Of a stretch of 64,000 nucleotides of DNA, positions 7,483-59,077 are shown piece by piece. Position 1 is the stretch's first letter; the number at the start of each line of letters is the position of its first letter. A program made the position numbers and the translations under genes. Below the pieces are notes generated by a model, which did not search any database, was not told where the DNA came from, and saw only the letters and a program-made list of their open reading frames with translations. The DNA comes from Omnitrophica bacterium GWA2_41_15 (GTDB taxonomy: Bacteria; Omnitrophota; Gorgyraeia; Gygaellales; UBA12090), in NCBI GenBank assembly GCA_919902675.1, contig CAKKRH010000001.1, positions 128,003-192,002 of the forward strand, written 5' to 3'.

Positions 7483-7554
7483 GCCGAGGTAGCTCAGTGG
7501 TAGAGCGCGGCCCTGAAAAGGCCGGCGTGGGAAGTTCGATTCTTCTCCTCGGCA
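7483..7554 (+). tRNA. tRNA-Phe (GAA)
   Basis: Cloverleaf read by hand: acceptor GCCGAGG/CCTCGGC, D arm GCTC-AGTGGTA-GAGC, anticodon arm CGGCC-CTGAAAA-GGCCG, T loop TTCGATT. CCA is not encoded. Confidence 0.9.
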
Positions 7555-8895: not shown

Positions 8896-9840
8896 ATGGC
8901 ACATATTATTAAACAAGACATAATTGAGAAAAAGATATTCTTGATTAGAGGCCTCAATATAATGCTGGATAGGGATCTCGCTGAACTTTATGGGGTGTCT
9001 ACAAAACGATTAGTTGAACAAGTGAAGAGGAATATAAAACGTTTTCCAGCGGATTTTATGTTTCAATTAACAAAGGAAGAATTTAAAAACTTGAGATTTC
9101 ATTTTGGAATATCCATCTTGAGGTCGCAAAATGCGACCTCAAGATGGGGCGGCCGCCGTTATTTACCATATGTCTTTACAGAACAGGGAGTTGCGATGCT
9201 CTCTAGTGTTCTTAATAGCGAAAGAGCTATTTTGGTAAATATCGGCATAATGCGGATATTTGTTAATATACGAAAATTAGTTTCTACAAATAAAGGAATA
9301 CTTAACAAATTGAATCAATTGGAAAATAAGGTTCAATCACACGATAAGAAGATAAGGACAATTTTTGAAGTTATCCACAAGCCGATAGATGTAAAATTGT
9401 TATCTCCGGGAAAGCCATTTTCAAATAAAAAAGCGATTAGGGATATTATCAGTTCTTGCGAAAAGTATATTTACTGGGTAGATAAATATTTTTCAAGAGC
9501 GGGGTTAGATTGGTTATCAGAGTCACTTAATGCCGGCAAAGTAAAAGAGATAAGAATTCTAATGTCCTCAGAGAAAGCGGATACGAAATTCCTATCCTTA
9601 TATAAAGATTTAAAGGAAGAACTCAAAAACGATGGGATGAAGTGTGAATTGCGGGTTATATCCGATAATAAATTGAATGCTGATATCCACGACAGATGGA
9701 TTATCTCTGAGAATTTATGCTACAATATGCCATCAACTGATACCATTGCCAGAGGACAATATAGTGAAGTAAAAAGAACAGCGAATCTTCCTCCATTTGA
9801 TGAATGGTGGGAGAAAAGCAAGTGGCCGGTGACGTTGTAG
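8896..9840 (+). CDS. ORF6N (KilA-N-like) DNA-binding domain protein with a C-terminal PLD-like (IHDRWII) domain
   Basis: N-terminal IMLDRDLAELYGVSTKRLVEQVKRNIKRFPADFMFQLTKEE...GGRRYLPYVFTEQGVAMLSSVLNS is the ORF6N signature. The C-terminal domain assignment is tentative. Confidence 0.7.
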   Translation: MAHIIKQDIIEKKIFLIRGLNIMLDRDLAELYGVSTKRLVEQVKRNIKRFPADFMFQLTKEEFKNLRFHFGISILRSQNATSRWGGRRYLPYVFTEQGVAMLSSVLNSERAILVNIGIMRIFVNIRKLVSTNKGILNKLNQLENKVQSHDKKIRTIFEVIHKPIDVKLLSPGKPFSNKKAIRDIISSCEKYIYWVDKYFSRAGLDWLSESLNAGKVKEIRILMSSEKADTKFLSLYKDLKEELKNDGMKCELRVISDNKLNADIHDRWIISENLCYNMPSTDTIARGQYSEVKRTANLPPFDEWWEKSKWPVTL

Positions 9841-26997: not shown

Positions 26998-27787
26998 GGT
27001 TTTAGTTTTACGCGCCGCGGGAACTAACTGTGATATGGAAACCGCCTTTGCTTTTTCCCGCGCCGGGGCGGTGGTTGAGCGGGTGCATATCAATCAGCTT
27101 AAAAGCCGCGCCAAAGAGCTTTCGCGATATCAAATCTTGGCTCTGCCCGGAGGCTTCAGCTACGGAGATGACCTTGCCGCCGGAAAAATCCTGGCCAATG
27201 AGTTGAAATATACCCTGGCGGATGCGCTCAGGGATTTTATTAAAAATGGGAAACTGATTATCGGCATCTGCAACGGTTTTCAGATTTTGGTTAAGGCCGG
27301 GCTCTTGCCGGGAAACAGCAATTCAGAGCAAGAGGTAACCCTGACTATTAACGATTCAGGAAAGTTTGAAGACCGTTGGACGTATCTGAAAAGTCCACAG
27401 TCCACAGTCCACAGTCCACAGATTAAATGCGTGTGGATAAGCGGGCTGTCTGAAGTAATCTATCTTCCCGTTGCCCATGGGGAAGGCAAGTTTATGGCCA
27501 AAGATAAAGCAGTTTTGGAAAGATTAGAAAATAATGGGCAGGTGGTTTTGCGCTATTGCGATGAAAAGGGAAATCCCGCGCAATACCCGGATAACCCCAA
27601 TGGTTCAGAAAATGCTATTGCCGGGCTTTCGGATGAGACCGGCAGAATCTTCGGCTTAATGCCTCATCCGGAGCGCCATAGCTTTGGCTGGCAAAATCCC
27701 CGCTGGACGCGCCAGGGTTTAAAAAAAGAAGGCGATGGCCTGCTGATTTTCCGTAACGGAGTAGAATATGCCAGAAAACTCATATAA
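26984..27787 (+). CDS. purQ: Phosphoribosylformylglycinamidine synthase I (glutaminase subunit)
   Basis: VLVLRAAGTNCDMETA, GGFSYGDDL, GICNGFQIL and MPHPER motifs. Start moved to ATG 26984 (MARPKV). Confidence 0.9.
   Translation: MARPKVLVLRAAGTNCDMETAFAFSRAGAVVERVHINQLKSRAKELSRYQILALPGGFSYGDDLAAGKILANELKYTLADALRDFIKNGKLIIGICNGFQILVKAGLLPGNSNSEQEVTLTINDSGKFEDRWTYLKSPQSTVHSPQIKCVWISGLSEVIYLPVAHGEGKFMAKDKAVLERLENNGQVVLRYCDEKGNPAQYPDNPNGSENAIAGLSDETGRIFGLMPHPERHSFGWQNPRWTRQGLKKEGDGLLIFRNGVEYARKLI
27392..27421 (+). repeat. 30-nt module (AGTCCAC)4AG, copy 3 (purQ)
   Basis: Exact 30-mer, translated KSPQSTVHSPQI. Confidence 0.95.
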
Positions 27788-29212: not shown

Positions 29213-30199
29213 ATGAAACAAGTAACTTATAAAAAATCCGGGGTTGATATTGAGGAGGCCGGTCGTTTTGTGGAAGCGATCAGGCCGTTAACCCGCGGCA
29301 TCGGCGGATTCGGCGGTTTGTTTAAATTTGATACCAAGAATTTTAAGGAACCGTATCTGGTTTCTTCAACCGACGGGGTGGGGACTAAGCTAAAGATTGC
29401 CTTTTTGGTTGGTAAGCACAATACCGTAGGGATTGATTTGGTAGGGATGAATGTCAATGATATTTTATGCGCCGGAGCCAAGCCTTTGTTTTTCCTTGAT
29501 TATATCGCCTGCGGAAAAATTCAGACAGGCGTCCTGACGGATGTGGTCAAAGGTATTGCCGAGGGTTGCCGCCAGGCCGGCTGTTCTTTGGTGGGCGGGG
29601 AAACCGCCGAGATGCCCGGGTTTTATAAAGAAGGCGAGTATGATTTAGCCGGGTTTTGCGTGGGGGTGGTTGATAAATCAAAGGCTGTCAATGGCTCAAA
29701 AATTAAGGCAGGGGATGTCCTTATAGGGATAGAATCTAACGGCCTGCACTCTAACGGATTTTCTTTGGTGAGAAAAGTTTTTACCAAAAAAGAACTAATA
29801 AAGTATGCTGACGCATTGCTCAAGCCCACCCGCATTTATGTTAAGCCAATTTTATCTTTACTGTCGACTATCGACTGTGGACTATCGACTATTAAAGGCA
29901 TCGCCCACATCACCGGCGGCGCCTTTTACGATAAAATCCCGCGGGTTATTCCAAAGGATTTAGGGATATACATAGACAAAAACAGCTGGCCGGTTCCGGA
30001 AATCTTCCGGCTGATTCAAGAAAAAGGCAATGTCCCGGAAAGCGATATGTACCGCACCCTGAATATGGGAATTGGTATGGTTTTAGCCCTTGAAAAGGGG
30101 AGAGCGGATAAGGTAATGTCCAGACTTAAGAGTTCAGGCCTCAGGTCCTGGGTAATTGGCGAAGTCATTAAGGGTAAAGAGCGGGTTAAAATTATCTAA
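29213..30199 (+). CDS. purM: Phosphoribosylformylglycinamidine cyclo-ligase (AIR synthetase)
   Basis: YKKSGVDIEEA, STDGVGTKL, DLVGMNVNDIL and AHITGGAF motifs. Start moved to ATG 29213. Confidence 0.92.
   Translation: MKQVTYKKSGVDIEEAGRFVEAIRPLTRGIGGFGGLFKFDTKNFKEPYLVSSTDGVGTKLKIAFLVGKHNTVGIDLVGMNVNDILCAGAKPLFFLDYIACGKIQTGVLTDVVKGIAEGCRQAGCSLVGGETAEMPGFYKEGEYDLAGFCVGVVDKSKAVNGSKIKAGDVLIGIESNGLHSNGFSLVRKVFTKKELIKYADALLKPTRIYVKPILSLLSTIDCGLSTIKGIAHITGGAFYDKIPRVIPKDLGIYIDKNSWPVPEIFRLIQEKGNVPESDMYRTLNMGIGMVLALEKGRADKVMSRLKSSGLRSWVIGEVIKGKERVKII
29861..29890 (+). repeat. 30-nt heptamer tract in purM: CTGTCGA CTATCGA CTGTGGA CTATCGA CT
   Basis: Period 7. It contains TGTGGAC, the reverse complement of GTCCACA. 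Translated LSTIDCGLST. Confidence 0.85.
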
Positions 30200-31102: not shown

Positions 31103-32413
31103 ATGAAAATTTTAGTTATTGGTTCAGGCGGCAGGGAGCACGCGATAATCTGGAAGCTTAAGCAGTCTAAATCTTTGCCTGAGATATATTGCGCTCCGGG
31201 TAACGGCGGGATATCCCGCGATGCCCGGATTGTGGACATCCAATCCGATGATATCAAAGGCTTGTTGGATTTCGCGGTAAAGGAAAAAATAGATTTGACT
31301 ATTGTAGGGCCTGAAGCGGCCCTGGCCCATGGAATAGTGGATAGGTTTATGCGTAAAGGCTTAAGTATTTTCGGGCCCACCAAAGAGCTTGCCCTTTTAG
31401 AATCCAGCAAGGCCTATGCCAAAGAAACTATGCGCGGGCTTAATATCCCCACTGCCGGTTTTGAGATTTTTGCTGAACCTGATAAGGCCATAGATTTTAC
31501 TAATAGGCCGCGCCTCTTTGCCGCGCATTATCCGGTAGTAGTTAAGGCTGACGGCCTGGCCGCGGGTAAAGGGGTGGTGATTTGTAAAGACCGTAAAGAA
31601 GCCCAGATAGCTATTGAAGATATGATGGTTAGAAAGGTCTTTGGCCCCGCCGGGACGCGTGTAGTAATTGAGGAGCACCTGGAAGGCGAAGAGGCCTCAA
31701 TTTTAGTGGTTTCCGACGGAATCAATTTTACCGCCTTAGCTTCGGCGCAGGATCATAAGAGGGTCTTTGACCGCGATAAGGGCCCCAATACCGGAGGCAT
31801 GGGGGCATATTCTCCGGCGCCAATAGTAACCCGGGATACGCATAAGCGAATAATGGATCAGGTCATTGAGCCTTTAATTACCGGCCTGGCCAAGGAAGGT
31901 AAGTTTTATAAAGGGATTCTTTATGCCGGGATAATGATTACTAAGCAGGGGCCTCAGGTTTTAGAGTTTAATGTTCGTTTTGGCGATCCCGAGACTCAAG
32001 CTATTTTGCCGCGTTTAAAAACGGATTTAGCGGATTTGTGTTTCGCCTCAATTGAGGATAAGATTGACCGGCTAAAATTAGAGTGGGAAGAAAAATCAGC
32101 TGTCTGCGTGGTTTTGGCCTCTGGAGGCTACCCCGGGGATTATCAGAAAGGTCTTGAGATTTCCGGCTTAGAGGATGCCGATACTTTGGCTGATGGAGAT
32201 TCCCACATCTTTCATGCCGGCACCGCGATTAGTCCACAGTCCACAGTCCACAGTCCACAGTTTGTTACTGACGGGGGACGCGTGTTGAATGTAGTGGGTT
32301 TAGGGGATACTATTCGTCAGGCGGCGCAGAAGGCTTATAAGATAGCCGGTAAAATTAAGTTTGATAAGATGCATTACCGTAAGGACATCGCCCACAGGGC
32401 GCTTAAAAGTTAG
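31103..32413 (+). CDS. purD: Phosphoribosylamine-glycine ligase
   Basis: MKILVIGSGGREHA, VVKADGLAAGKGV, GPNTGGMGAY and GGRVLNV motifs. Confidence 0.93.
   Translation: MKILVIGSGGREHAIIWKLKQSKSLPEIYCAPGNGGISRDARIVDIQSDDIKGLLDFAVKEKIDLTIVGPEAALAHGIVDRFMRKGLSIFGPTKELALLESSKAYAKETMRGLNIPTAGFEIFAEPDKAIDFTNRPRLFAAHYPVVVKADGLAAGKGVVICKDRKEAQIAIEDMMVRKVFGPAGTRVVIEEHLEGEEASILVVSDGINFTALASAQDHKRVFDRDKGPNTGGMGAYSPAPIVTRDTHKRIMDQVIEPLITGLAKEGKFYKGILYAGIMITKQGPQVLEFNVRFGDPETQAILPRLKTDLADLCFASIEDKIDRLKLEWEEKSAVCVVLASGGYPGDYQKGLEISGLEDADTLADGDSHIFHAGTAISPQSTVHSPQFVTDGGRVLNVVGLGDTIRQAAQKAYKIAGKIKFDKMHYRKDIAHRALKS
32231..32260 (+). repeat. 30-nt module (AGTCCAC)4AG, copy 4 (purD)
   Basis: Exact 30-mer, translated ISPQSTVHSPQF, between FHAGTA and VTDGGRVL. 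Confidence 0.95.
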
Positions 32414-39308: not shown

Positions 39309-40271
39309 ATGTTTATAAGAAATACCGAGATAAGGATAATCCAGGGAGATATTACCGAAATTGAGGCTGAGGCAATTGTCAACGCCGCCAATAACCGGCT
39401 TTTGATGGGCGGCGGGGCGGCGGGCGCGATTAAGAAAAAAGGCGGCAAGATTATTGAGGACGAGGCAGTTAAAAAAGGGCCGATAGAAATCGGCGCGGCA
39501 ATATCCGGCCCTGCCGGGAAGCTGAAGGCAAAATATGTTATCCATGCCGCGACTATGGGTATGGATTTTAAGACCGATGAGGCAAAGATCCGCCTGGCCT
39601 CTCGCAGCTCTTTAAAAGAAGCTGAAAGATTAAAAGTCAGCTCTATCGCTTTTCCCGCGCTGGGTTGCGGGGTGGGCGGGTTTCCCGAGATTGGCTCGGC
39701 CAAGATTATGGCCCAGGAAATATTCCGGCACCTCTGGTTTGATTGCCCGGGCAGTCATTTAAAGGAAATAACCTTTGTCCTTTTCGATAAGCCCGCTTAC
39801 GCCGCCTTTAATAAAAATGTGCTAAGTTATCTGGAATATATTATTCATAAAATTCAACAAGGGCCGTTTATTACCGTAGACATAATAATTGAGCTTCCGG
39901 AAGGGATTGTGCTGATCGAGCGCTCCAATCCTCCTTATGGCTGGGCTATTCCCGGAGGATTTCTGGATTATAACGAGAGCTTAGAAGACTGCGCGGCGCG
40001 TGAGGCTAAGGAGGAGACATCGCTGGAGGTCTATGATTTAAAGCAGATGCATACTTACTCAAGGCCTGGACGAGACCCCCGCTTTCACACGGTAACCACG
40101 GTATTCACGGCTAAAGCTAAAGGTGAGCCCCAGGCCGGCTCCGATGCCGCCAATCTTAAGGTGGTAGGGCCGGAGGACGCGTCAAAACTTAACCTGGCTT
40201 TTGATCATAAGCAGGTTATTTCAGATTATTTGATGGTCAGAAAAGAATATCAGATGCGGCGACAAAGTTGA
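39309..40271 (+). CDS. Macro domain (ADP-ribose binding/hydrolase) fused to a NUDIX hydrolase
   Basis: IIQGDITEIEAEAIVNAANNRLLMGGGAAGAI and AFPALGCGVGG (macro). GGFLDYNESLEDCAAREAKEETSL (Nudix box). Confidence 0.82.
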   Translation: MFIRNTEIRIIQGDITEIEAEAIVNAANNRLLMGGGAAGAIKKKGGKIIEDEAVKKGPIEIGAAISGPAGKLKAKYVIHAATMGMDFKTDEAKIRLASRSSLKEAERLKVSSIAFPALGCGVGGFPEIGSAKIMAQEIFRHLWFDCPGSHLKEITFVLFDKPAYAAFNKNVLSYLEYIIHKIQQGPFITVDIIIELPEGIVLIERSNPPYGWAIPGGFLDYNESLEDCAAREAKEETSLEVYDLKQMHTYSRPGRDPRFHTVTTVFTAKAKGEPQAGSDAANLKVVGPEDASKLNLAFDHKQVISDYLMVRKEYQMRRQS

Positions 40272-40361: not shown

Positions 40362-40392
40362 TTGACAAAGGTTAGCAAATTTGCTAACCTTT
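40362..40392 (+). promoter_or_regulatory. Promoter -35 box plus perfect 26-nt palindromic operator of the TA module
   Basis: TTGACA at 40362-40367, overlapping AAAGGTTAGCAAA|TTTGCTAACCTTT (40367-40392). Confidence 0.6.
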
Positions 40393-40408
40393 GTGTGAGA
40401 GGCGATGT

Positions 40409-40816
40409 GTGGCAATTCCAAAGAAAGAAGAATACATTTTCTATCAGGGAGAGAAGTTTCAAGTAGAGTTTTATTTTACTGTGGCAGGAAAGATGCCTGC
40501 TAAAGAGTGTTTGGAAGAGACGGCTTTAGATGTAAAAGTAAAACTGGCTACTCTGGTAAAATATATGGCAGAGCAGGGCAAGATTTTCGATATAACAAAA
40601 TTTAGAGTGGTGGATTCTAAAGAAAAAATCTATGAGTTTAAGCCTTTGCAATATCGTTTTTTTAATTTTTTCTATGAAGGAAGAAAAATAATCATTACCA
40701 GCGGCTATATGAAAAAATCTCAAAAGGTGAGTGGAAAAGATTTAGAAAGAGCCAGAGAGATAAAGAGAGATTATGTTTATAGAGTAAAAGGGGGTAGTTA
40801 TTATGGAAAAGAATAA
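40409..40816 (+). CDS. Type II toxin, RelE/ParE superfamily (Gp49/HigB-like)
   Basis: KIYEFKPLQYRFFNFFYEGRKIIITSGYMKKSQK is typical of the Gp49-like family. GTG 40409 behind GAGAGG chosen as start. Confidence 0.75.
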   Translation: MAIPKKEEYIFYQGEKFQVEFYFTVAGKMPAKECLEETALDVKVKLATLVKYMAEQGKIFDITKFRVVDSKEKIYEFKPLQYRFFNFFYEGRKIIITSGYMKKSQKVSGKDLERAREIKRDYVYRVKGGSYYGKE

Positions 40817-41120
40817 AACATATATGGATAAGTTAATGACCGAAAAAGATTTTCGGGAAAAGTTTGATCAGAAATACCAGAATCTTTGTATCGCGGAGCA
40901 GATTGCCCAGGCGCGTCATCAGGCGCATTTAACTCAATCCGAGCTGGCTAAGCGAATCCATACCACTAAATCGGCTATCTCTCGTTATGAAAGCGCTGAT
41001 TACGATAAATACGGGATTACACTCTTAACTAGAATTGCCAAGGCCTGTGGAGCAGATTTAAAAATAATTTTTGTTACTTCTAAGCATATAAAGAATGGCC
41101 ATCGTTTTGCTGCCGTTTAA
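40803..41120 (+). CDS. XRE-family HTH antitoxin (HigA-like)
   Basis: HLTQSELAKRIHTTKSAISRYES helix-turn-helix. Overlaps the toxin stop by 14 nt. Confidence 0.78.
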   Translation: MEKNKTYMDKLMTEKDFREKFDQKYQNLCIAEQIAQARHQAHLTQSELAKRIHTTKSAISRYESADYDKYGITLLTRIAKACGADLKIIFVTSKHIKNGHRFAAV

Positions 41121-49944: not shown

Positions 49945-52192
49945 CTTAAAAGGACTGTTTATAAAGATACTGCTGCTTATTCCGCTTATCTATATCGGTT
50001 TTGGCTGGTATGTCGGCCTAAGCTACGGCAGAAAGGCCGCCTTGTTTGGCCCCTATAAAGATATTCCTGTGATGATGAAAACTCATCTCTTGGGCTCATC
50101 TCTTAGTGAGATTTCCGGCAGTAATACGCTTGTGATGGTTGTGCCGCCAGGAGAGGCTGATAAATCTGAACTAGACTCAACCTATTTTAAGCTAACCGGC
50201 TATTTTGAGGTCCCCGGAACTTGGAACTTTGATTTTACGCCTTCTGATGCTGATGATAGCTTTAAAGAGACATTTGTTTTAACCGGAAGCTATTCCCGCG
50301 CCATAGCCCATGAGCTTAAGAACCCTAACCGTAGCTTGGGAAGCCTGTCAGTAAGAGAGCTTAATCATTTCCTTAAGGCAACCGGCAGGATCAAAGACAT
50401 GGAAAAGTTAAGGCCCTATCTTTTTCTGGCAAGGATGGAAGAGAAGTATCCTTGGCTGTACTCTGATACTGTGCTTTTATCCAGGGCAATGGGAAATATC
50501 TTTAAAGATAATATGCTTCCTTATGACATATTAGGGTTAGTAGGTATAGTAATCTTCTTTATCGGATTAGCGACCAGAGGCTTTTGGCTGTGGGGATATT
50601 ACCTATTTTGGGTATTTGCTTATTGGCTGGGCAGGATTGGATACCACGATATAAATCTAGCCTTTACTAATAACGGTTACCAGATAATCCTTTGGAGCTT
50701 CTGGAACGGTTTTATAGTCAAAGAGGGCAGACTGTTTTTGCTGATTGCCGCGGGATTATATCTTATCAGTTTTGTGGCCTTGGCTGTTGTGTACGTATTC
50801 AAACATATCTTGCCGCGCAAAAAGCGGGAGCTTGAGGATTTCTTCAAAATCGACAAAGACGCTTTAAAAAGAAAAGAACTCTCCATTGAGACTGTTGAGT
50901 TTAAAAGAGTACACTATGACATCAATAAAAAGTTAAATCAATACGCGAAAACAGACAAGTATTTTTTGGCTGTCTCAGATAATAAACAAGATGTTGTCGT
51001 TGAGGAAAGCGCGCTTAACCGCCATCTGCACGTATTAGGCCCGACCGGAGGCGGAAAGACTTCTTTAGTGATACTTCCTTTAAGCAGACAGGCGATAGAA
51101 AAAGGAAGGGGCTGCTGCTTTATTGACTTTAAGGGCGATGATGTTTTTAAGAAGTATGTTCAGCGGAAGGCGAAAGAAAAAGGCAGGAGGTTCTATTATT
51201 TCAGCATTGACCCTAATGAGCCGTCGGCAGGATATAATCCGCTGTCTTCCGGCGATATCCATTCCAAGGTAGACAGGATTATGACCGCGCTGGAACTGAT
51301 TTATCATGGCCCGGCAGGTTTTTACTCTAACGTGCAGGCGATGACTTTTGTTGAATTATTAAAAGAAATGGTTCAGGGAAAGAAAGAGATAAATTTCCTT
51401 TCAGTTAAGGACGCTTTGGAGGATCCTATCTTCTTAGAGAGAACGGATGTGCGCGCCCAGGACGTTAAGGGCCTTTTGGCGGCAATTTCCTGGATCGCGG
51501 GAATTGAGGTAATAAACAGGGATGGGTTAGATTTAGCTAAAGTGATCAAGAACGGGGATGTGGTATTCTTTGCTCTGAAAAGTCAGGTGAATACGCGCTT
51601 AGCTGAGGCAATTGGAAAAATGCTTATCATTGATATTAAGTCTCAGGCTGTATCACGCCAGGAAACCGATCCGCCATACTTTATCTTCATTGATGAATTC
51701 CAGAATTTAGCCTGCTCGCATTTTGTAGATGTAATCTCTAAGGTAAGGAGCGCTAATTTTTGTCTGGTTTTGTCTAATCAGTCGCGGGGAAACTTATCCA
51801 ACGTATCAGCCGCGTTTGAAAACGCCATTTTTACCAATTCCGCGACCAAGGTAATTTTTATGCAGGAGGACCCCTTTGACGCGAAATTCTGGTCAGATAA
51901 AACAGGGCAGACCACCTATCAGGATAAAAGCGTATTCCAGGTGGATAATATAACTACTGATAAAACAGGCGCGAAGCTTGACGGCCTAAGATCTGCCCAG
52001 GGCAATATCCGCACAGCTGTTAAAAACTACATCTCAGAGAATGTGTTTTTAAGGCTGCCCTTTTCTAAATCCGTTATTTTTTCCAGAGGCAAGCTTACAG
52101 TAATAGCTAATCATGAATTCTTGTTTGGTAAGGCAGAAAGGGATAAGATTATTTTAAGTCCGTTTGAATACGAGAGGAAGAAAGCTGCATAA
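49928..52192 (+). CDS. Type IV coupling protein (TraD/VirD4 family)
   Basis: N-terminal TM helices, Walker A LGPTGGGKTS, Walker B YFIFIDEFQNL. 754 aa. Confidence 0.8.
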   Translation: MDKPFSLKGLFIKILLLIPLIYIGFGWYVGLSYGRKAALFGPYKDIPVMMKTHLLGSSLSEISGSNTLVMVVPPGEADKSELDSTYFKLTGYFEVPGTWNFDFTPSDADDSFKETFVLTGSYSRAIAHELKNPNRSLGSLSVRELNHFLKATGRIKDMEKLRPYLFLARMEEKYPWLYSDTVLLSRAMGNIFKDNMLPYDILGLVGIVIFFIGLATRGFWLWGYYLFWVFAYWLGRIGYHDINLAFTNNGYQIILWSFWNGFIVKEGRLFLLIAAGLYLISFVALAVVYVFKHILPRKKRELEDFFKIDKDALKRKELSIETVEFKRVHYDINKKLNQYAKTDKYFLAVSDNKQDVVVEESALNRHLHVLGPTGGGKTSLVILPLSRQAIEKGRGCCFIDFKGDDVFKKYVQRKAKEKGRRFYYFSIDPNEPSAGYNPLSSGDIHSKVDRIMTALELIYHGPAGFYSNVQAMTFVELLKEMVQGKKEINFLSVKDALEDPIFLERTDVRAQDVKGLLAAISWIAGIEVINRDGLDLAKVIKNGDVVFFALKSQVNTRLAEAIGKMLIIDIKSQAVSRQETDPPYFIFIDEFQNLACSHFVDVISKVRSANFCLVLSNQSRGNLSNVSAAFENAIFTNSATKVIFMQEDPFDAKFWSDKTGQTTYQDKSVFQVDNITTDKTGAKLDGLRSAQGNIRTAVKNYISENVFLRLPFSKSVIFSRGKLTVIANHEFLFGKAERDKIILSPFEYERKKAA

Positions 52193-52212
52193 AATTAAAA
52201 GGAGGAAAAAAT

Positions 52213-52536
52213 ATGCGCAGAGATATTAAAAGGAAGAGATTTATGCTAAAGGCCTTTGTGGCCTTGTGTTTGGTTCTGGGACTTTCGATGGCGGTCGCGC
52301 CTTTTGTTTTCGCGCAAATAAGCACTACCCAAGAGCAGCAGGTAGTAGGAGACTTTGCTACTTTTATCATCAATATACTCACCGGGCCTGTATCAAAGAT
52401 CTTAGGGGCAATATTGCTGATTGGCGGAGTAATCGCGCTTTTAAACGGAAAACAGGAAGTAGCCATTGCCTGCGGTTTTGGGTTCCTGATCCTTATATTT
52501 GTACCGAAGATCTTGGAGGGATTGTTTAAACAATAA
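52213..52536 (+). CDS. T4SS pilin-like protein (TrbC/VirB2/TraA class)
   Basis: 107 aa with a long signal peptide ending FVFAQ, then two hydrophobic helices (GPVSKILGAILLIGGVIALL, IACGFGFLILIFVP). Confidence 0.65.
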   Translation: MRRDIKRKRFMLKAFVALCLVLGLSMAVAPFVFAQISTTQEQQVVGDFATFIINILTGPVSKILGAILLIGGVIALLNGKQEVAIACGFGFLILIFVPKILEGLFKQ

Positions 52537-52823
52537 TGAGAAAATGCCTGCGCACTATTGATAAACCTCTGCTTCTTTTTGGCCTGGAGCCTGAAGACGT
52601 AGGGATACTGGCTTTAGCCTGTGGCGCTATGTTGATTTTATTCGATACCTTTTACGCGGGCCTGGTTTTCTTTGGAGGCTGGATGTTTTTAAGGTTAATA
52701 AAACAAGGTAAGCCTCAGGGTTATGTTATCCATTTGTTTTATAAATACGGGATTCGTATAAAAGGGTTGATCGAACCTCCAAAAATAATCAGCAGGTATT
52801 CGGTTTTTAGGAGAGAGGATTAA
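52536..52823 (+). CDS. TraL/VirB3-like small T4SS membrane protein
   Basis: 95 aa. IDKPLLLFGLEPEDVGILAL followed by two TM helices. Sits immediately after the pilin gene. Confidence 0.55.
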   Translation: MRKCLRTIDKPLLLFGLEPEDVGILALACGAMLILFDTFYAGLVFFGGWMFLRLIKQGKPQGYVIHLFYKYGIRIKGLIEPPKIISRYSVFRRED

Positions 52824-52825
52824 AA

Positions 52826-53017
52826 ATGCAGATGCAAAACTTCACCATGCTGGAGCTTTTATTGGTAATTCTAATCTTTGCCTTTTACTTCTTGCCGACT
52901 TTGATCGCGTTCTTAAGGCAGCACAAAAATAAGCTGGCGATATTTTTATTAAACCTGCTTTTAGGCTGGACTGTCTTGGGGTGGGTGGTTTCGTTGGTCT
53001 GGTCGGTAATAAAGTAA
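52826..53017 (+). CDS. Superinfection-immunity (Imm_superinfect) family small membrane protein
   Basis: FLPTLIAFLRQHKNKLAIFLLNLLLGWTVLGWVVSLVWSV matches the family signature from memory. Confidence 0.7.
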   Translation: MQMQNFTMLELLLVILIFAFYFLPTLIAFLRQHKNKLAIFLLNLLLGWTVLGWVVSLVWSVIK

Positions 53018-53031
53018 ATCTTACGTCTGTA

Positions 53032-53086
53032 TACAGAGAGTTTTTCTGTCGCATCATATTTCTGGGCCGCCTGAGAGAGAATACCC
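53032..53086 (+). repeat. Direct repeat A flanking the AT-rich cassette
   Basis: TACAGAGAGTTTTTCTGTCGCATCATATTTCTGGGCCGCCTGAGAGAGAATACCC. Similar copy at 57362-57416. Confidence 0.85.
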
Positions 53087-53193
53087 ATAGAAACACATTG
53101 ACAAATTCAATAGTTATGATAAATTAATGCTGTAAGAAGATTATAATCGTCCCGAGTTGGAAGGGATAAATCCTGGACGTTAAAAAAGCAAAA

Positions 53194-53228
53194 CCTTCGT
53201 AGACATAAATCTGCGGAGGTTTTTTTTC
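53194..53228 (+). terminator. Rho-independent terminator
   Basis: CCTTCGTA (53194-53201) pairs with TGCGGAGG (53212-53219), two G-U pairs, followed by T8. Confidence 0.65.
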
Positions 53229-53286
53229 TTCAGAAAGTAGTAAGATATGGATTTAGGAGGAATGTATGTAGTTATGGGGGGATTAT

Positions 53287-53970
53287 ATGCGCGCAAAAGA
53301 GATTTATTTTGGGCTGTTAAAAAGATGGGAAAGTGAATGTAGTGACGGACCTTGGTTAGAGTCTCTAAAAAAGCAATACAATATAGGTACTAACGAATGG
53401 ACAGGAGATAGGTTCTTCTTAATAACGATTTCATGGGGGCCGTGGAGACCAGAAAGGCAGATGGATGTTTGGATATTAATGAAAAATAAATATCCAAAAG
53501 TAGTAGAGGATTTACGCGAAGCAAGAGAAGATTTCAAAGGTTTTCCATTGCCTTGGCAGAACGCAAGAATAATGGCTGCTTCGCGATATTTAAGAAACAA
53601 TTCGAAAGCGCTTAAGGATGTAATTTCCGAGTTGCGTCCACTTCCAGGACTAGAAGCTATTAATTATCTCGCTGATATCTGTGAAGTTAAACAAAATAAA
53701 AAGACAATAAGCTGTTTTATAAGAGATTTTTTACTCAAAGACACTTTTCCTATTGATACGAGAGTAGCTGCAATGCTTTCGTGTTTAGAATTGCCAAAAA
53801 CGGAAGAAGAAGTTGTCGAGGTATGCAAAAAAGAAGGAATTAGCTCAAGGGTATTAGATAGAATGTTTTATTCCCAATGGGATGAGTGTCCGGGTAAATT
53901 AAAAGAGAAATATAAATGCGAAAAATGTGGCATTGAAAGATATTGTCGAGATTCTTTTCTTAAAAAGTAG
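53287..53970 (+). CDS. HhH-GPD superfamily DNA glycosylase-like protein with a C-terminal Cys4 motif
   Basis: LPGLEAINYL...NKKTISCFIRDFLLKDTFPIDTRVAAML resembles the HhH plus catalytic Asp region of Ogg2/EndoIII-type enzymes. C-x9-C-x2-C-x5-C (CPGKLKEKYKCEKCGIERYC) resembles an Fe-S cluster loop. Confidence 0.45.
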   Translation: MRAKEIYFGLLKRWESECSDGPWLESLKKQYNIGTNEWTGDRFFLITISWGPWRPERQMDVWILMKNKYPKVVEDLREAREDFKGFPLPWQNARIMAASRYLRNNSKALKDVISELRPLPGLEAINYLADICEVKQNKKTISCFIRDFLLKDTFPIDTRVAAMLSCLELPKTEEEVVEVCKKEGISSRVLDRMFYSQWDECPGKLKEKYKCEKCGIERYCRDSFLKK

Positions 53971-54018
53971 GACCTTCATAGGAACGGGTTCTGTGAAGGT
54001 TATGTGCTTTAGACAACT

Positions 54019-55149
54019 ATGACTGAAAAAATAAATTTATATATCTTAGGTGCTGGGGCTTCTAATCCGGATGGGGTTCCAGTTACAAGTGAATTAATAG
54101 ATCAGGCATTTTGGAATTTTGGCGGAAAATATGATAACAAAGATATGTTTCTCATGGGAACTTGGGACAAAGAAACGGAAGTTTTACCTATTGTAAAACC
54201 CGTTCTAGAATTATACGATAAATTCTACGGAACAGATTTAGTTGAAAAGTTAAAAAATTATTATAAAGATGGCTATCATCCTGTTAGTTTAGGTATTGCT
54301 ACCAACAACATAGAAGATTTTTTCAGTAGGTTATATTATTTATCTAAAGGAATAGAAAGTTATAATCTTAATTTAACTAAACAAGAAATCTCAGATTTAT
54401 CAAAAAAAGCTAATTATTTATTTTTCCATACTTTAGCCCATTCTACTATAGGAATTTCAAAGCCGAAATATTATTCAACTTTTGTAGAAAAACTGCTCAA
54501 GCGTAATGGTAAACATTGCATAATGTCATTTAATTATGACCTACTCTTGGAGGATGTTTTTACATCCAGAGATTATTTAAAATATGATGGGTATAAATGG
54601 CTTTATCCTGAAGAGTTAAAATGGTCTTATTGTATCAATTTTAATAACGTCTCTGGTGTACCATATGACTTTCCGCAAGAAGAGCAGGCGAGAATACTTT
54701 ATTTAAAATTACATGGCTCTTTAAATTGGAGTTTTTGCCCTCTGACTCAAGAAGTTTCAATGCATACGCTACATGCCGATGCATGGATATATAAAAGGTT
54801 TTATAAAGAGGAACTTCGTTGTCGCAATGGTTCTCATGTTAACTTACCACTTTTAATTCCTCCTATAAAAAATAAAGAAATAGATAGTCCGGAGCTTAGA
54901 TCTTTATGGAGTAAAGCCTATAACTTAGTTTCTCAAGCAAAAGAGGTTCATATTATCGGCTATTCTTTGCCGGAAGTTGACATAGAAGCAAATAAATTAT
55001 TAGGACAGCTTCCTGTTAAAATGTTGGAGAGAATAGTAATAGTTAACCCTAATAAGAACCATATAAATAAGTTTATTAGAATTTTGCAGGATAAAAGCAA
55101 AATTTCACTATTTGATAATTTTGAGCAATACCTTGTAAATTATAAATGA
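54019..55149 (+). CDS. SIR2-like (SIR2_2 type) domain protein
   Basis: LYILGAGASNPDGVP, IMSFNYDLLLED (catalytic Asn context), YLKLHGSLNW (catalytic His context) and HIIGYSLPEVD. Confidence 0.7.
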   Translation: MTEKINLYILGAGASNPDGVPVTSELIDQAFWNFGGKYDNKDMFLMGTWDKETEVLPIVKPVLELYDKFYGTDLVEKLKNYYKDGYHPVSLGIATNNIEDFFSRLYYLSKGIESYNLNLTKQEISDLSKKANYLFFHTLAHSTIGISKPKYYSTFVEKLLKRNGKHCIMSFNYDLLLEDVFTSRDYLKYDGYKWLYPEELKWSYCINFNNVSGVPYDFPQEEQARILYLKLHGSLNWSFCPLTQEVSMHTLHADAWIYKRFYKEELRCRNGSHVNLPLLIPPIKNKEIDSPELRSLWSKAYNLVSQAKEVHIIGYSLPEVDIEANKLLGQLPVKMLERIVIVNPNKNHINKFIRILQDKSKISLFDNFEQYLVNYK

Positions 55150-55216
55150 AAGGAAGGATCTGCTCCGATAACGAAAGAGACTTTATTTCGGAGTAACATA
55201 ATCCCATCCGTTGTTT

Positions 55217-56239
55217 ATGAAAATAGAAGAGTTAGATTTAGGAAAAGCAAAAAGTATCATTATAAAATGGGCGCAGACCAAACCATTTATAACCAAGGTT
55301 TATTTATTTGGCTCAAGAATTACTGGTAATAGCAAAAAGACAGGTATGCTTGTTAGGCCTGATAGTGATTTAGATGTAGCTTTAGAATTTACAAGGATTT
55401 CTCAAGAAGAAAATCTTCTTACTACTTGGACTTGCGAAGCGAAAAACTGGCGTAAGGAATTATTAGACCTTTTAGGTTTTACTAATGAAAAAGATTTGCA
55501 CTTGGAGTGGCTTCATGAAACAGAAGCTCCTCATGTAGCGCGGTATACAGAAGAAGGCTCTGAACTCATATATACTTCGATGGAAAAATGGTTTGAGGAA
55601 CTTAATAAAGAGGCTTTCTTAATTTTTCATCACCTTAATTTATTCAAACAATTGTTCGAGATTCTCGATAAAAATAAATCTCTGGAAAACATGGATCAAA
55701 CTATTTTTCAATGGATGAGAACAGCATTTACTGCGGATTTAGTTATTGCTATAGGTCGTCTTCTCGATGATAAAAAAAGCTCTCGTAGTTTTATTCGTTT
55801 CCTTCATGAGTTAAAAGATAGAGATGACTATTTGAGTCGCGAGAAATATGTTGAAAAATATAATAATTTTCCCGGGGTCAGTTCTGTAAGAAAATATATG
55901 CTTGAACTTGCGAATAAACATTTCGATAGTTTAGCTGGGGAAAACACTAAGATTTATCCGGCAGATAATGTAAATGAAGATATATCTATACTAACCCAAA
56001 GAACTCCATGCGGGGATATCATTGGGTTTAGAAATCAATATTTAGCGCATCTTAGTAAAATAAAATATTCTTCGCCTCCTACGTATGGCGAGTTATTCAA
56101 GACTTTCGAAATTATTGAAACAGTAATGAAAAAGTATAATTTGATTATGAACGCAGCTCATGTAGATAGCTTTACTCCTATTCCGCAAGGGTATTGGCAA
56201 CAGCCGTTAACCATTCCTTGGATTGGAGAAGAGAAATAA
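55217..56239 (+). CDS. Fusion of an MNT-type nucleotidyltransferase domain with a HEPN-like (AbiU2-like) domain
   Basis: VYLFGSRITGNS...RPDSDLDVALEF (GS...DxD NTase motif). C-terminal FRNQYLAHLSK fits the HEPN Rx4-6H motif. ATG 55217 preferred over TTG 55211. Confidence 0.55.
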   Translation: MKIEELDLGKAKSIIIKWAQTKPFITKVYLFGSRITGNSKKTGMLVRPDSDLDVALEFTRISQEENLLTTWTCEAKNWRKELLDLLGFTNEKDLHLEWLHETEAPHVARYTEEGSELIYTSMEKWFEELNKEAFLIFHHLNLFKQLFEILDKNKSLENMDQTIFQWMRTAFTADLVIAIGRLLDDKKSSRSFIRFLHELKDRDDYLSREKYVEKYNNFPGVSSVRKYMLELANKHFDSLAGENTKIYPADNVNEDISILTQRTPCGDIIGFRNQYLAHLSKIKYSSPPTYGELFKTFEIIETVMKKYNLIMNAAHVDSFTPIPQGYWQQPLTIPWIGEEK

Positions 56240-56270
56240 GGTCATCTAAAACCAGAAACTCATCTGAATA

Positions 56271-57311
56271 ATGGCAACTATTCGCTGTCATACAGTCCCT
56301 CAATTTTATTTAAACTATTTTTTACAGTCCGGATCGAATCTTCTTTGGGTGTATGACAAGAAATATTTTGATATTCGACCCCAGTCTCCTGTGAATACCA
56401 CCGTAATAGGAGATTACTATTTATCAGAACCCGATGATAGAGGAGAGAAAGATCAAAGGGCTGAAAAATTTCTTTCCGTTATAGAAGGCTGGGCAAAGCC
56501 AATTTTAGATAGATTAGTTAATCGTCCTAATAGTTTAGTAGGAGCGAATAAGGATGTTCTAGCAATGTTTATTGCTTTTACACATTGCCGAAGCCCACGC
56601 TCCGTTCAAGCTATTAAGGAAATAAGCGAGGCTGGTGTTGATTATGCGCTTGATCAAGTTAAGGAGATAGCTCTAGATTCTATAGAGATGAGGAAATTAT
56701 ATGAGAGGTTCTCGCAAAAAGAAAACAATGAGTCTAATCTATCTTATGATGAGTTTATTCAAGTAATGAAAGATCCAAAAAATGGCGTTTATACCGAGGT
56801 CAATGAAAAATACGCTATCGGAGAAAGTTTGCTTCTTGCCGAAGTAGTTCATCGAAGAATTAAGGATTTATATTGGCACATACGCATAGCCTCTAAGGGA
56901 CATTTTTTCATTACTTCTGATGCCCCGGTGACAATATTTACACCCCTTCCGAATAATAAAGCAATTTTTGGCGGTGGATTAGAATTACCTACCGTGCAGT
57001 TGACTTTCCCGTTGTCTCCGAGGGTATGTTTGCATATGGACAAAAATCCATTAGGTCAGACTGAACGGGCCGATGTCAACTATGTCAATGAAATAAATCG
57101 CAGATCAATATATATGGCCGAGCGCTTTGTAATATCCCCTTTTCGCAGTAATAGAATAAAAAATATGGTTGAGAAATACTCAGCTACCTATAAAACCCCT
57201 AAGATAGATGCTGAGGAGATTAAAAATATGCTCAGAAAGGAAGGTTTAGATCTTAGAGATAAGCTGAGCGAGGGGTTTAAGGAAAAACTGGATTTACGTG
57301 AGCACGATTAA
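56271..57311 (+). CDS. DUF4238 family protein
   Basis: N-terminal HTVPQFYLNYF matches the DUF4238 signature H-x-V/I-P-Q-F-Y-L (from memory). Confidence 0.6.
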   Translation: MATIRCHTVPQFYLNYFLQSGSNLLWVYDKKYFDIRPQSPVNTTVIGDYYLSEPDDRGEKDQRAEKFLSVIEGWAKPILDRLVNRPNSLVGANKDVLAMFIAFTHCRSPRSVQAIKEISEAGVDYALDQVKEIALDSIEMRKLYERFSQKENNESNLSYDEFIQVMKDPKNGVYTEVNEKYAIGESLLLAEVVHRRIKDLYWHIRIASKGHFFITSDAPVTIFTPLPNNKAIFGGGLELPTVQLTFPLSPRVCLHMDKNPLGQTERADVNYVNEINRRSIYMAERFVISPFRSNRIKNMVEKYSATYKTPKIDAEEIKNMLRKEGLDLRDKLSEGFKEKLDLREHD

Positions 57312-57361
57312 CTTTCTCTTCTAAGGCTTTACCATTTTCAGATAAGCTGTTTACAGAGAGT

Positions 57362-57416
57362 TTTTCTCCTGCGCCGTATTTCTGGGCGCCCTGAGTGAGA
57401 ATACCCTTTGAAATAA
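57362..57416 (+). repeat. Direct repeat B flanking the AT-rich cassette
   Basis: TACAGAGAGTTTTTCTCCTGCGCCGTATTTCTGGGCGCCCTGAGTGAGAATACCC. Same orientation as repeat A. Confidence 0.85.
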
Positions 57417-57484
57417 TTTTACAAAAGATTTTACAAAGGATTGCTGAAAAGTCCAAAAATAGGCAGCAATCTCTGATTAAAAGA

Positions 57485-57606
57485 TTAAAGGCAGATTACA
57501 GAGATTAAATGCTCGTCGGAGAAATCTGTGTAATCTAAGGTAATCTATGTAATCAGAGGTCGCTGATATAGTTTTAGGAGTTTTTCAGCGACCTCTACAA
57601 AAAATC
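57485..57606 (+). promoter_or_regulatory. Cluster of GATTA / TAATC short repeats plus a 12-bp-stem hairpin abutting the traE-like promoter
   Basis: GATTA at 57485, 57493, 57504 and 57513. GTAATC at 57540, 57550 and 57559. AGAGGTCGCTGA (57565-57576) pairs with TCAGCGACCTCT (57595-57606). Confidence 0.5.
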
Positions 57607-57634
57607 TTGACAAGTTAAAATTATGGTGTATAGT
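57607..57634 (+). promoter_or_regulatory. Sigma70-like promoter of the traE-to-traC-like operon
   Basis: TTGACA (57607-57612), 16-nt spacer, TATAGT (57629-57634). Confidence 0.6.
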
Positions 57635-57692
57635 AATTTTTAGAAGTTAAAATTTAGCAGCAGACAGTCCTATTTGAAAAACAAAGGGGCTG

Positions 57693-58355
57693 GTGTTTCT
57701 GAGGAAAGTCTCAGGAATGCCGGCCCCTTTTTTATTTGCCATGAATGATCTTAAACCCGAAAAAGTAAAACGCGCCGGTTTCGTTGAGAAATGGGCTCAT
57801 GCCGAACAAACATCCGCATTTTTAGGAATCAGCCTTTATGCCGTGATTGCTTTCTGCATAGCCTTGCTAGTTACACTATTTAAAGTATCCACCAAGCCAC
57901 AGTCTATTTATTACATCCCCAGCGCCCAGGAAGCAGGTGTTGCCTATCCAAACCGCGTAGATAAAGCAGTAGTATGCGGCTTTGCCTCAAACTGGCTCCT
58001 GAACCGCAATAACTTTACGCCTGTTACAGTCAAGGATACTTATATGAGGGCAATGCGTTATATGGCGCCAGCGCTTCTTTCCAGGACCAAGGCAAACCTT
58101 GAAGATGAAATATCCAGGGTTACGCGCGACAACATCTCCTCCTTATTTTCCCTGAGTAAAGAACCGGAATTAGAAGACTCAGGGATAGATTTCAAAGTGA
58201 CATTGACCGGAGAAAAGATTATTTTCATGGGCAAGGAAAAATTGGATGACCGTATTCTTCGCTACACCATAACCTTGCAAAGAATCCCGCCTATTGAAAC
58301 CAACCCCTACGGCCTGGTGATTGCCGGGGTTAAACAGGAAGAGGTAGAGCCATAA
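57693..58355 (+). CDS. TraE/VirB8-like bitopic T4SS protein
   Basis: Single TM helix (FLGISLYAVIAFCIALLVTLF) plus a periplasmic domain. Position before the TraK/TraB-like genes. Start uncertain (GTG 57693, ATG 57717 or ATG 57741). Confidence 0.55.
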   Translation: MFLRKVSGMPAPFLFAMNDLKPEKVKRAGFVEKWAHAEQTSAFLGISLYAVIAFCIALLVTLFKVSTKPQSIYYIPSAQEAGVAYPNRVDKAVVCGFASNWLLNRNNFTPVTVKDTYMRAMRYMAPALLSRTKANLEDEISRVTRDNISSLFSLSKEPELEDSGIDFKVTLTGEKIIFMGKEKLDDRILRYTITLQRIPPIETNPYGLVIAGVKQEEVEP

Positions 58356-59077
58356 TGAAAATACTTAAAAGACTATTTTATTCGATGATTATTTCCGGAC
58401 TTGTTCTTACGGGGAAGGCCGATGCTTCAAATGCATCTGATTACAATGATGAGATTACTTTAAGATTAAAAGCAGGCATGATTACCGAAGCGGAATTCCC
58501 GGACAAAATCGCCAATGTCACAAAAAGCGTCACCAGCGAAATCTTACAGATTGAAACCTTAGGAAACAGGATTTTCTTGCTACCCATAGAAAATTTGGAA
58601 TCTCAAGTTTACGTAGTTACCCAGGATAATGTTTCCTATTGCCTGCGTTTAATCATGGATGAAGCCCAAGCCCCTACCCGCATAAAGATTGAAAAGCCTC
58701 ATCAGGCAGCAAATGAAGAGCAGGGTAGAGACACAGCAAATACGGTTGAACTCATGAAAGCGCTTCTTACGGGCAGGCAGCCGCCTGGTTCAGTCAGCTC
58801 AAAGCTGCATCCTCAGGATATTTTTAATAACGCTAAATTGCGCATCACTGTAGATGAGGTTTATGAGCTTCAGGGTGGCACAAAAGCCTTTGTTTTGACC
58901 TTTGAGAACCTCATAGATAAACCGGTTGTGGTGCCAATTGAGCATATAGAGCTGCCGGGTCTATTGGCCATAAGCGTAGACAGCCAAATATTGGAGGCGC
59001 GGCCGCTGGATACAAAGAGGAAGCCCTCAAAACATACCACCAGGGCTTACATGATCGTGGAAGAGCTGACGCAATGA
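58355..59077 (+). CDS. TraK/VirB9-like periplasmic T4SS protein
   Basis: Signal peptide. The ITEAEFPDKIANV...NRIFLLP...VYVVTQDNVSYCLRLI pattern resembles TraK. Confidence 0.55.
   Translation: MKILKRLFYSMIISGLVLTGKADASNASDYNDEITLRLKAGMITEAEFPDKIANVTKSVTSEILQIETLGNRIFLLPIENLESQVYVVTQDNVSYCLRLIMDEAQAPTRIKIEKPHQAANEEQGRDTANTVELMKALLTGRQPPGSVSSKLHPQDIFNNAKLRITVDEVYELQGGTKAFVLTFENLIDKPVVVPIEHIELPGLLAISVDSQILEARPLDTKRKPSKHTTRAYMIVEELTQ

Follow-up and report, generated by a model that had tools for sequence, protein, structure and literature searches.

Our analysis of a 64-kb stretch of DNA from Omnitrophica bacterium GWA2_41_15 (contig CAKKRH010000001.1; the whole 64,000 nucleotides are called the window here) identified a cargo hotspot in an F-like type IV secretion system (T4SS) gene cluster, which is conserved within one clade of Candidatus Omnitrophota. 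The variable slot lies between the gene of a small membrane protein of the Imm_superinfect family (Imm) and traE. The same flanks enclose nothing in seven relatives and at least seven unrelated cargo sets in others, and we regard the existence of the hotspot as virtually certain. In the window the slot is occupied by four AT-rich genes bordered by two copies of a dispersed repeat, which we call REP. The explanation that we favor as a whole, and consider fairly probable, is that the window contains one occupant of this Omnitrophota slot, that the occupant is defense cargo, and that cassettes are exchanged there by way of REP.

Relatives of the cluster were collected as 11 genome loci through TraE alignment and as further contigs through exact look-ups of TraE variants; an L with a number labels each compared locus or metagenome stretch. 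TraE had 227 homologues at E ≤ 1e-3, the best 120 of the 227 being 82-100% identical, and the source-named entries among these 120 were mostly Candidatus Omnitrophota or Omnitrophica. The conserved flanks that were compared (TraD, pilin, TraL and Imm on the left; TraE, TraK, TraB, TraV and TraC on the right) showed 65-95% amino acid identity in loci spanning both sides of the slot, such as L002-L005, L008 and L044, and lower values in the divergent, partial L010 and L011. The slot was empty in seven loci (L002-L005, L008, L010 and L011), with 6-218 nt from the Imm stop codon to the traE start codon: 6 nt in L011 and 174-218 nt in the six others, whose spacer consists of ~45 nt, the traE promoter and a leader hairpin. 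The promoters given below with coordinates are predictions from a consensus scan in which matches were scored out of 12.

Occupied slots differed widely in content. The four genes of the window recurred at 100% protein identity in L044, from another assembly, and again in L062, also from another assembly, with a truncated gene call for the SIR2-like gene (287 aa). Source metagenomes that contain this cassette include ENA ERZ1292622 and ERZ1300416. L001 holds HigB, an HTH-Peptidase_M78 protein, a Beta protein (PADLOC PD-Lambda-2_C, 1e-34) and a 'cll'-like protein; L016 holds a 793-aa type II/IIG methyltransferase and three genes without assignment; and the cargo of the L047 type, present in eight contigs, comprises RelE/MqsA, an HTH protein, a 397-aa protein, His_Phos_1, and proteins of 267 and 712 aa. 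L067 carries the RelE/MqsA module as in L047 (92% over 1.36 kb), then a tyrosine-recombinase remnant, an FRG-domain protein and a 272-aa protein, and still other genes fill the slot in L050/L051/L061, L055/L059, L006/L007 and L009. The remnant in L067 (~6950-7200), in a frame read by eye, resembles the C-terminal catalytic region of a tyrosine recombinase (..HSLRHTVGTRLL..LGHSDVATTLKY), and some slot cargo may therefore have arrived by integrase-mediated insertion. Many contigs break ~130 nt upstream of traE, as expected at a strain-variable site. Same flanks with empty slots and many different cargos bear out the proposal of an earlier reading made from the letters of the DNA (the sequence-only reading) that the cassette is a secondary insertion or the site a dedicated cargo hotspot; the insertion is, moreover, strain-variable. 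That reading had placed the slot directly at the junction of traL and traE, a position that has to be amended, as a conserved 63-aa Imm_superinfect gene lies between traL and the slot in every relative covering the site, so that the slot proper is Imm-traE.

On its left, the slot is preceded by the traL-like gene (52536-52823; Pfam TraL 25.9 bits, cut-off 24.4), whose product has 86-89% amino acid identity in most relatives and 68% in L011, and by the gene of the Imm_superinfect membrane protein (52826-53017; PF14373, E = 7e-21), the last conserved gene before the slot; these, and all features of the slot and its flanks located below, are on the plus strand. Variability starts a few nucleotides past the Imm stop codon (AAGTAAAT...) and stops at ACAAAAAATCTTGACA, the -35 region of traE. 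The traE promoter (57607-57634; TTGACA, 16 nt, TATAGT; 11/12 consensus) is conserved in all loci, occupied and empty alike, and is the invariant right boundary of the slot. It is followed by a terminator-like leader hairpin with a U-tract (57684-57729; 20 pairs), which ends ~8 nt before the start codon of the traE-like gene (57741-58355; Pfam TraE 35.7 bits, cut-off 24.8), and then come the traK-, traB-, traV- and traC-like genes. RNAalifold on 12 loci gave 19 pairs for this hairpin, 3 of them with compensatory changes. There is no obvious Shine-Dalgarno sequence ahead of traE, and its own promoter and leader hairpin are found in every relative; the leader has the appearance of an attenuator, or of a small leader RNA, for control of the T4SS genes. 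The slot would be expected to tolerate inserts because it lies between two transcription units, traE having its own conserved promoter and leader hairpin, and inserts need not disturb T4SS expression.

The composition of the cargo is foreign. The G+C content of 53106-57343 is 0.347 against a window mean of 0.443, and is the lowest among all 4.2-kb sliding windows, the lowest non-overlapping one being at 0.41. GC3 is likewise lower, at 0.24-0.33 in the cargo versus 0.43-0.49 for TraD, pilin, TraL, TraE, TraK, TraB and TraC, and the AT-richness of the four genes relative to their flanks, first noticed in the letters, thus holds on proper computation.

Four same-strand open reading frames (ORFs) lie between the repeat copies. 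Cargo and flank proteins were scanned with Pfam, PADLOC and NCBIfam, and structured RNAs with Rfam; none of the four cargo proteins matched a recombinase family in the three protein collections, in agreement with the earlier statement that the cassette contains no recombinase. Gene 1 (53287-53970; 227 aa) belongs to a small family of 9 clusters at ~55% identity, with one member named Omnitrophota. It had no match in Pfam, PADLOC, NCBIfam or PDB, its AlphaFold model was poor (pLDDT 57), and a fold search of that model was empty; its FPIDTRV motif and C-terminal Cys cluster recall HhH-GPD glycosylases, as a visual lead only. Gene 2 (54019-55149; 376 aa) is SIR2-like, with matches to the PADLOC SIR2 and Aga_SIR2 models (E 4e-8 to 1e-3) and to Pfam SIR2_2 at 21.3 bits, under the 24.5 cut-off, and its distant homologues carry PF13289. 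Gene 3 (55211-56239) encodes a Polbeta nucleotidyltransferase (Pfam 27.1 bits, cut-off 26.9) fused to HEPN_AbiU2 (51.1 bits, cut-off 26.8), and its start is likely ATG 55217, giving 340 aa and matching the gene call in L044. Gene 4 (56271-57311; 346 aa) encodes a DUF4238 protein (Pfam E = 2e-42, 145.9 bits); protection of E. coli against T7 has been shown for a single DUF4238 protein encoded in a P2 prophage hotspot (bioRxiv 10.1101/2021.01.21.427644).

The cargo protein families, together with the contents of the other slot occupants, point to a probable role of the cargo in anti-phage or anti-plasmid defense. PADLOC recognized no complete defense system in the four-gene cassette. With homologues of the SIR2-like gene and of gene 1 traced, the four-gene set was found only at the T4SS slot (window, L044 and L062); more distant homologues of genes 1 and 2 occur singly in other contexts, and the two are therefore not an obligate pair.

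The leader of gene 1 (53149-53231) contains the motif GUCCYGAGUU...CCYGGACGUUAAAAAAG and then a terminator-like hairpin with a T-run (53190-53223). The motif can be read in a longer form, GUCCYGAGUU..GGG..CCYGGACGUUAAAAAAGNAAAACCUUCG, followed by a terminator or a hairpin of the anti-Shine-Dalgarno type. It also occurs in L034 (~580-640, minus strand), L015 (1058-1107, plus strand) and L041 (~9506-9552, minus strand), so that in four loci including the window it sits between a promoter and unrelated cargo genes. The motif had no Rfam match and may represent a new cis-regulatory leader of acquired genes.

A repeat search of the window recovered the pair that borders the cassette as one two-copy family: 53027-53105 and 57347-57425, 79 nt at 80% identity on the same strand and 4320 nt apart, with the differences concentrated in one block. 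A repeat pattern of 21 specified bases had exactly 2 matches in the window at ≤3 mismatches (0/100 shuffles reached ≥2), nhmmer gave E ~1e-18 to 1e-20 for both copies, and profile scans showed no third copy in the 64 kb, so the only two REP copies of the window are those at both cassette borders. All four of the blocks that the sequence-only reading had named in its direct, same-orientation repeats, TACAGAGAGTTTTTCT, TATTTCTGGGC, CCTGAG and GAGAATACCC, are present. The pair is real, but the interval proposed for the second copy was 10 nt too far right, since TACAGAGAG starts at 57352 and not at 57362, and the homology is longer than the 55 nt supposed. As REP units, the left copy (A) extends over 53024-53105 and the right copy (B) over 57344-57425. 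At the 3' edge of copy A lies a predicted sigma-70-like promoter pointing into the cargo (53098-53125; TTGACA, 16 nt, TAAATT, TG-extended; 10/12 consensus), and a comparable promoter is found downstream of REP A in L001.

These repeats are members of a dispersed, strand-oriented, non-palindromic family. A scan of JGI metagenome contigs with the pattern GAGAGTTTTTCT-N9-TATTTCTGG placed the repeat in 32 metagenome stretches, 28 of them without a T4SS gene match and four adjoining Imm/TraL; nhmmer picked up more divergent units near the seeds, and the family is thus broader than the pattern. Two of the carriers, L039 and L041, are Omnitrophota metagenome-assembled genomes (MAGs). The unit of ~70-76 nt starts with CTGT(A/T)TACAGAGAGTTTTTCTG, continues through a 9-nt variable block, the central (G/A)TATTTCTGGGC block and a variable stretch, and often ends in ACCTCTC. 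Units are single or form tandem arrays of differing subtypes in which they abut directly. The typical setting is after an intrinsic-terminator hairpin and before a sigma-70-like promoter, so that REP is probably little transcribed, and the strand of REP agreed with that of the downstream ORF in 38/39 cases and with that of the upstream ORF in 36/41. By sequence reading, tested in some cases, the neighbors include housekeeping genes, namely SurE (twice), GpmA, Fur, ComEC and two-component systems, and cargo-like genes, namely a GmrSD-like DUF262 protein, a large STAND-like protein, methyltransferases, helicases, terminase-like genes, ORF6N proteins and antitoxins. Neither the REP family nor the T4SS slot is described in the literature covered by a full-text search or in a preprint on 176 complete Omnitrophota genomes (bioRxiv 10.64898/2026.06.07.730766).

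Several other identities for the repeat were rejected. An RNA element is contradicted by RNAalifold, which found 0 consensus pairs in 46 copies, by single folds that were mostly not significant on either strand (z-scores +0.4 to -1.4, the exception being copy B on the plus strand at -3.1), and by Rfam, which gave no relevant match at E ≤ 1 in window positions 52000-58500 and none at E ≤ 0.1 in ten REP loci. A coding repeat is contradicted by other copies, which carry TGA in the one frame left open by both copies of the window; the aligned copies have no inverted termini and no recurrent duplicated flank, as a miniature inverted-repeat transposable element (MITE) would; and two repeat patterns had no match in IMG/VR viral contigs, contrary to a phage origin. 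Upstream of REP in L028, L029, L069 (two sites), L024 and L022 we also noticed a conserved module: a promoter-like site, then ~115 nt that contain two hairpins and end in GGCTATTGATCGGATACGGTCAATAGCC and a T-run. The module has no Rfam match, and its appearance suggests either a small RNA gene or another kind of repeat.

At the T4SS slot, one REP stands on each side of the differing cargos of L001 and L016, as in the window. Repeat-bounded variability, as envisaged in the sequence-only reading, therefore holds for these types but is not general: the L047-type cargo has REP on the right side only, and no REP was found in the occupied L050/L051/L061, L055/L059, L006/L007 and L067. REP was also absent from 7/7 empty slots (blastn-short, nhmmer). 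Comparison of homologous blocks thus yielded the empty sites and the different cargo that had been anticipated, but not the single repeat copy at the empty sites, and the notion of a short conserved spacer as insertion target falls with it; as the empty sites are without the repeat, the pair is not an attL/attR derived from a resident attB.

REP marks module borders in several chromosomal contexts. In a defense island (L069/L070), a gene-1 homologue (53% identical) with a 142-aa gene, a REP, a 348-aa gene, a second REP, a MazE-like pair and a REP-like unit follow one another. Among three related genomes, the 3' end of surE is adjoined in L032 by an array of three REP units and no cargo, in L041 by a REP, a three-gene cassette, another REP and a further unit, and in L033 by 9.4 kb of low-GC genes and then REP. 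The cassette genes of L041 would be, by reading, RelA/SpoT-like, ParA-like and one without assignment.

The two halves of REP have different relationships. In copy A, the 5' half (ending ..CTGTCGCATCA) is common to the left copies of other occupied T4SS loci and the 3' half (beginning CCGCCTGAGAGAGAATACCCATAG..) is locus-specific; in copy B, the 5' half (ending ..TTTTTCTCCTGCGCCG) is locus-specific, and the 3' half (beginning GCGCCCTGAGTGAGAATACCCTTTG..) and the following bases are common to the right copies of L001, L016 and the L045/L047 type. Across five cargo contexts, the left REPs of the T4SS share their 5' half, including a diagnostic GTCGCATCA block, and are divergent after TATTTCTGGGCCGC; for the right REPs, compared in four contexts, it is the 5' half that varies, and near-identity sets in at TATTTCTGGGCGCCCTGAG. 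For pairs of copies homologous only upstream, identity was 94% in the 5' half and 60% in the 3' half, for pairs homologous only downstream 85% and 90%, and for unrelated pairs, taken as background, 72% and 45%. The MazE cassettes of L069 and L031 align over a 661-nt high-scoring segment pair, 92% identical, that starts 33 nt inside REP, in its 3' half and behind 5' halves of differing subtypes, and the homology of L024 with L037/L042 starts at the 5' edge of REP. REP halves are thus hybrid, the 5' half tracking the upstream context and the 3' half the downstream cassette, a pattern that recombination between REP copies with a central crossover would produce. Such a crossover would also tie REP more strictly to the downstream than to the upstream gene.

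In the mechanism that we propose, cassettes would travel as autonomous units of REP, promoter, genes and terminator. They would be gained, lost and swapped by recombination of REP with REP, the crossover falling in or beside the central TATTTCTGGGC block, and each REP would become a hybrid with its 5' half from the upstream context and its 3' half from the downstream cassette. The crossover could be made by RecA or by a dedicated recombinase, and whole slot contents would move between strains through homologous recombination of the highly conserved tra flanks once DNA had been taken up or transferred. That REP is the recombination joint for cassette exchange we hold to be plausible, with a chance slightly short of even, and we doubt that a dedicated site-specific enzyme makes the crossover. 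In its most far-reaching form, the ~75-nt REP would be the site of an unrecognized Omnitrophota cassette-exchange system with a fixed-point crossover and a recombinase encoded elsewhere in the genome, an idea that we put forward tentatively and think unlikely. The same system would shuffle promoter-gene-terminator modules, many of them defensive, among slots such as those at the 3' ends of surE and the T4SS Imm gene, which is likewise a speculative extension.

A number of observations weigh against exchange of defense cassettes through REP. Recombination between REP copies cannot explain the first insertion, since empty slots are without REP; several occupied slots have REP on one side or none, and the tyrosine-recombinase remnant of L067 points to other integration routes. 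An empty slot with a solitary REP was found in none of the 11 genome loci, 4 metagenome loci and contigs of seven TraE-homologue look-ups, no excised circle of the slot was seen, no recombinase gene among the scanned proteins was associated with REP in any locus, and the four-gene cassette was seen at no other genomic site. The half-repeat statistics come mostly from one T4SS site with pairs that are not independent, and two conserved blocks were fixed in the REP scan pattern, a bias in how conserved the family appears. Sequence common to the window and L001 continues for ~45 nt past REP A and through the promoter, and breakpoints thus do not all fall inside REP. As to the cargo, the SIR2_2 match of gene 2 lies under the Pfam cut-off and gene 1 has no match in the family collections.

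Alternatively, REP may be a passive dispersed repeat (REP/BIME- or NIME-like) that is carried along while the slot changes only by tra-flank recombination and occasional illegitimate or integrase insertions, an account that we judge unlikely. Empty sites without REP, cargos without one or both REPs and the integrase remnant in L067 speak for it, as does the presence of REP behind the housekeeping genes SurE, GpmA, Fur and ComEC, and the limits of variability (past the Imm stop and at the traE -35 box) are the same in REP-containing and REP-free variants. A passive repeat would, however, hardly be expected to have its only two copies in 64 kb exactly at both cassette borders, to show homology switches at its center at both T4SS junctions and in an unrelated locus pair, or to divide the successive modules of a defense island.

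It is quite improbable that REP is a regulatory or insulating element acting at the DNA level, such as a platform for a regulator or silencer upstream of a promoter, with recombination incidental. The traE promoter is identical with and without an upstream REP, operators would hardly be expected to form gene-free tandem arrays of two or three units, and the 70-nt conserved unit is long for an operator and has no known binding factor; yet the position between terminator and promoter, the co-orientation with the downstream gene in 38/39 cases, the strong primary-sequence conservation with 0 consensus pairs in 46 copies and the recurrence of conserved REP-plus-promoter modules would all suit such a function. 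The model that follows from the sequence-only reading, site-specific insertion into a short conserved spacer that was duplicated as attL/attR, is very unlikely: direct, same-orientation repeats do flank foreign DNA in the window, and L001 and L016 also have a copy on either side of different cargo, but the sequence occurs in 0/7 empty sites and at 28 stretches without T4SS gene matches, and the copies are 80% identical with their differences in one block.

The cluster around the slot has an F-like gene order (TraL, TraE, TraK, TraB, TraV, TraC), with Pfam TraL, TraE and TrbI above cut-offs. To the left of the cassette are genes for a TraG_N protein, a MobC-like protein, a TraD-like coupling protein, a TrbC/VirB2-like pilin, TraL and the 63-aa Imm_superinfect protein; to the right are those for TraE, TraK (weak; TraK_Ftype E = 0.0037), TraB (TrbI), a gene in the position of TraV and assigned to it by position, and TraC, with TraC_F_IV annotated on a TraC homologue. 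Among the part of the window proteins that was scanned for protein families, no integrase or relaxase turned up, the MobC-like and TraD-like proteins being the only ones of this kind. The synteny upstream of the T4SS cluster (aroK, dprA) is not kept in L002, L004, L005 and L008. Downstream of traC in L045, L046, L048, L060 and others, we observed a Secretin (PF00263) gene and a T2SSE-family ATPase fused to STAND/AAA domains; F-like conjugation systems do not usually have this combination, which suggests that the apparatus is a hybrid.

Between REP B and the traE promoter, the window has a three-hairpin insert of 158 nt (57438-57595) with TACAAA direct repeats at 57432-57437 and 57596-57601. 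The insert was found in the window, L044 and L062 only; L001, L016 and L045 lack it, and their REP B directly adjoins the promoter. A small mobile insertion is one possible origin.

Three further features of the window were recorded. A Y1_Tnp gene (IS200-like or RAYT-like; 8043-8717; 224 aa) lies between a tRNA-Phe gene (7483-7554) and an ORF6N gene (8896-9840) and is flanked by the 20-nt sequence ATGGTCGCTGTCCCTATTTT, with one inverted copy upstream (7984-8003), two tandem copies downstream (8718-8757) and none elsewhere in the window or the fetched loci. The heptamer AGTCCAC forms five tandem runs over 9 kb, four on the plus strand (23823-23856, 26057-26104, 27391-27424 and 32230-32263) and one on the minus strand (29857-29893). 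Immediately upstream of aroC are a Gp49-like (HigB-type) toxin gene (40391-40816) and a Macro-NUDIX fusion gene (39309-40271), with a low-GC patch at the toxin gene (0.358 at 40501-41000); a further small module may have been acquired here.

Omnitrophota are abundant, mostly uncultured and often host-dependent, and little is known of how their genomes change. The conserved T4SS cluster of one clade is here found to hold a slot in which defense and toxin-antitoxin modules turn over between close strains. If REP proves to be a recombination joint, it would provide a sequence tag for mobile cassettes and for new defense genes in Omnitrophota.

The slot can be compared with several known systems. 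Integrative and conjugative elements of the SXT/R391 type have fixed intergenic slots between conserved transfer genes, with variable cargo that includes phage-defense systems. Like these hotspots, the Omnitrophota slot holds unrelated, often defensive cargo and leaves the core genes undisrupted. It differs from them in that some of its cargo is bordered by a dispersed ~75-nt repeat, which is undescribed for SXT, and in its carrier, which belongs to an uncultured lineage and has MobC-like and TraD-like proteins only among the scanned window proteins. The hotspots of P2 prophages and P4 satellites (Rousset et al., bioRxiv 10.1101/2021.01.21.427644) are similar in being short slots, flanked by conserved genes, with diverse compact defense systems, DUF4238 occurring in both. 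Here, unlike in P2 and P4, the carrier is a T4SS cluster and not a prophage, and the cassettes are punctuated by repeats.

Among repeat families, the REP/REPIN elements of RAYT (Y1 HUH) transposases are likewise short dispersed extragenic repeats with many copies and arrays, whereas the Omnitrophota REP is not a hairpin and forms no inverted doublets. A link to a RAYT was rejected, as the Y1_Tnp gene of the window is flanked by a different 20-mer and no REP adjoins its homologues in L039 and L004. In Neisseria, minimal mobile elements are strain-variable cassettes with conserved flanks, proposed to be exchanged by homologous recombination after DNA uptake, and NIME/dRS3 arrays are intergenic repeat arrays. 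The Omnitrophota slot shares with them variable cassettes without a mobility gene and short dispersed repeat mosaics at intergenic sites, and a dprA gene is present in the window. The two differ in phylum and repeat sequence, and REP, unlike the neisserial repeats, is non-palindromic, is oriented with the downstream gene and has breakpoints clustered inside it.

Integron arrays resemble the REP loci in their co-oriented modules separated by a recurring site (attC, ~60-130 nt) and in their hybrid sites, of which one part travels with one cassette and the remainder with the neighboring one. REP nonetheless lacks the imperfect-palindrome fold that defines attC, RNAalifold finding 0 pairs in 46 copies. 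The proteins scanned in the window and in the neighborhood of REP arrays included no IntI tyrosine recombinase (short contigs, non-exhaustive scans). Unlike attC, REP conserves its primary sequence, is not an imperfect palindrome and precedes the genes; unlike integron cassettes, the REP-bordered ones have their own promoters and terminators, with no IntI gene seen beside any array. Exchange at REP would thus be functionally like that of integrons while using a sequence-defined site, promoter-bearing cassettes and no linked integrase and, if REP proves to be a recombination joint, it would represent a second, independent solution to the problem that integrons solve.

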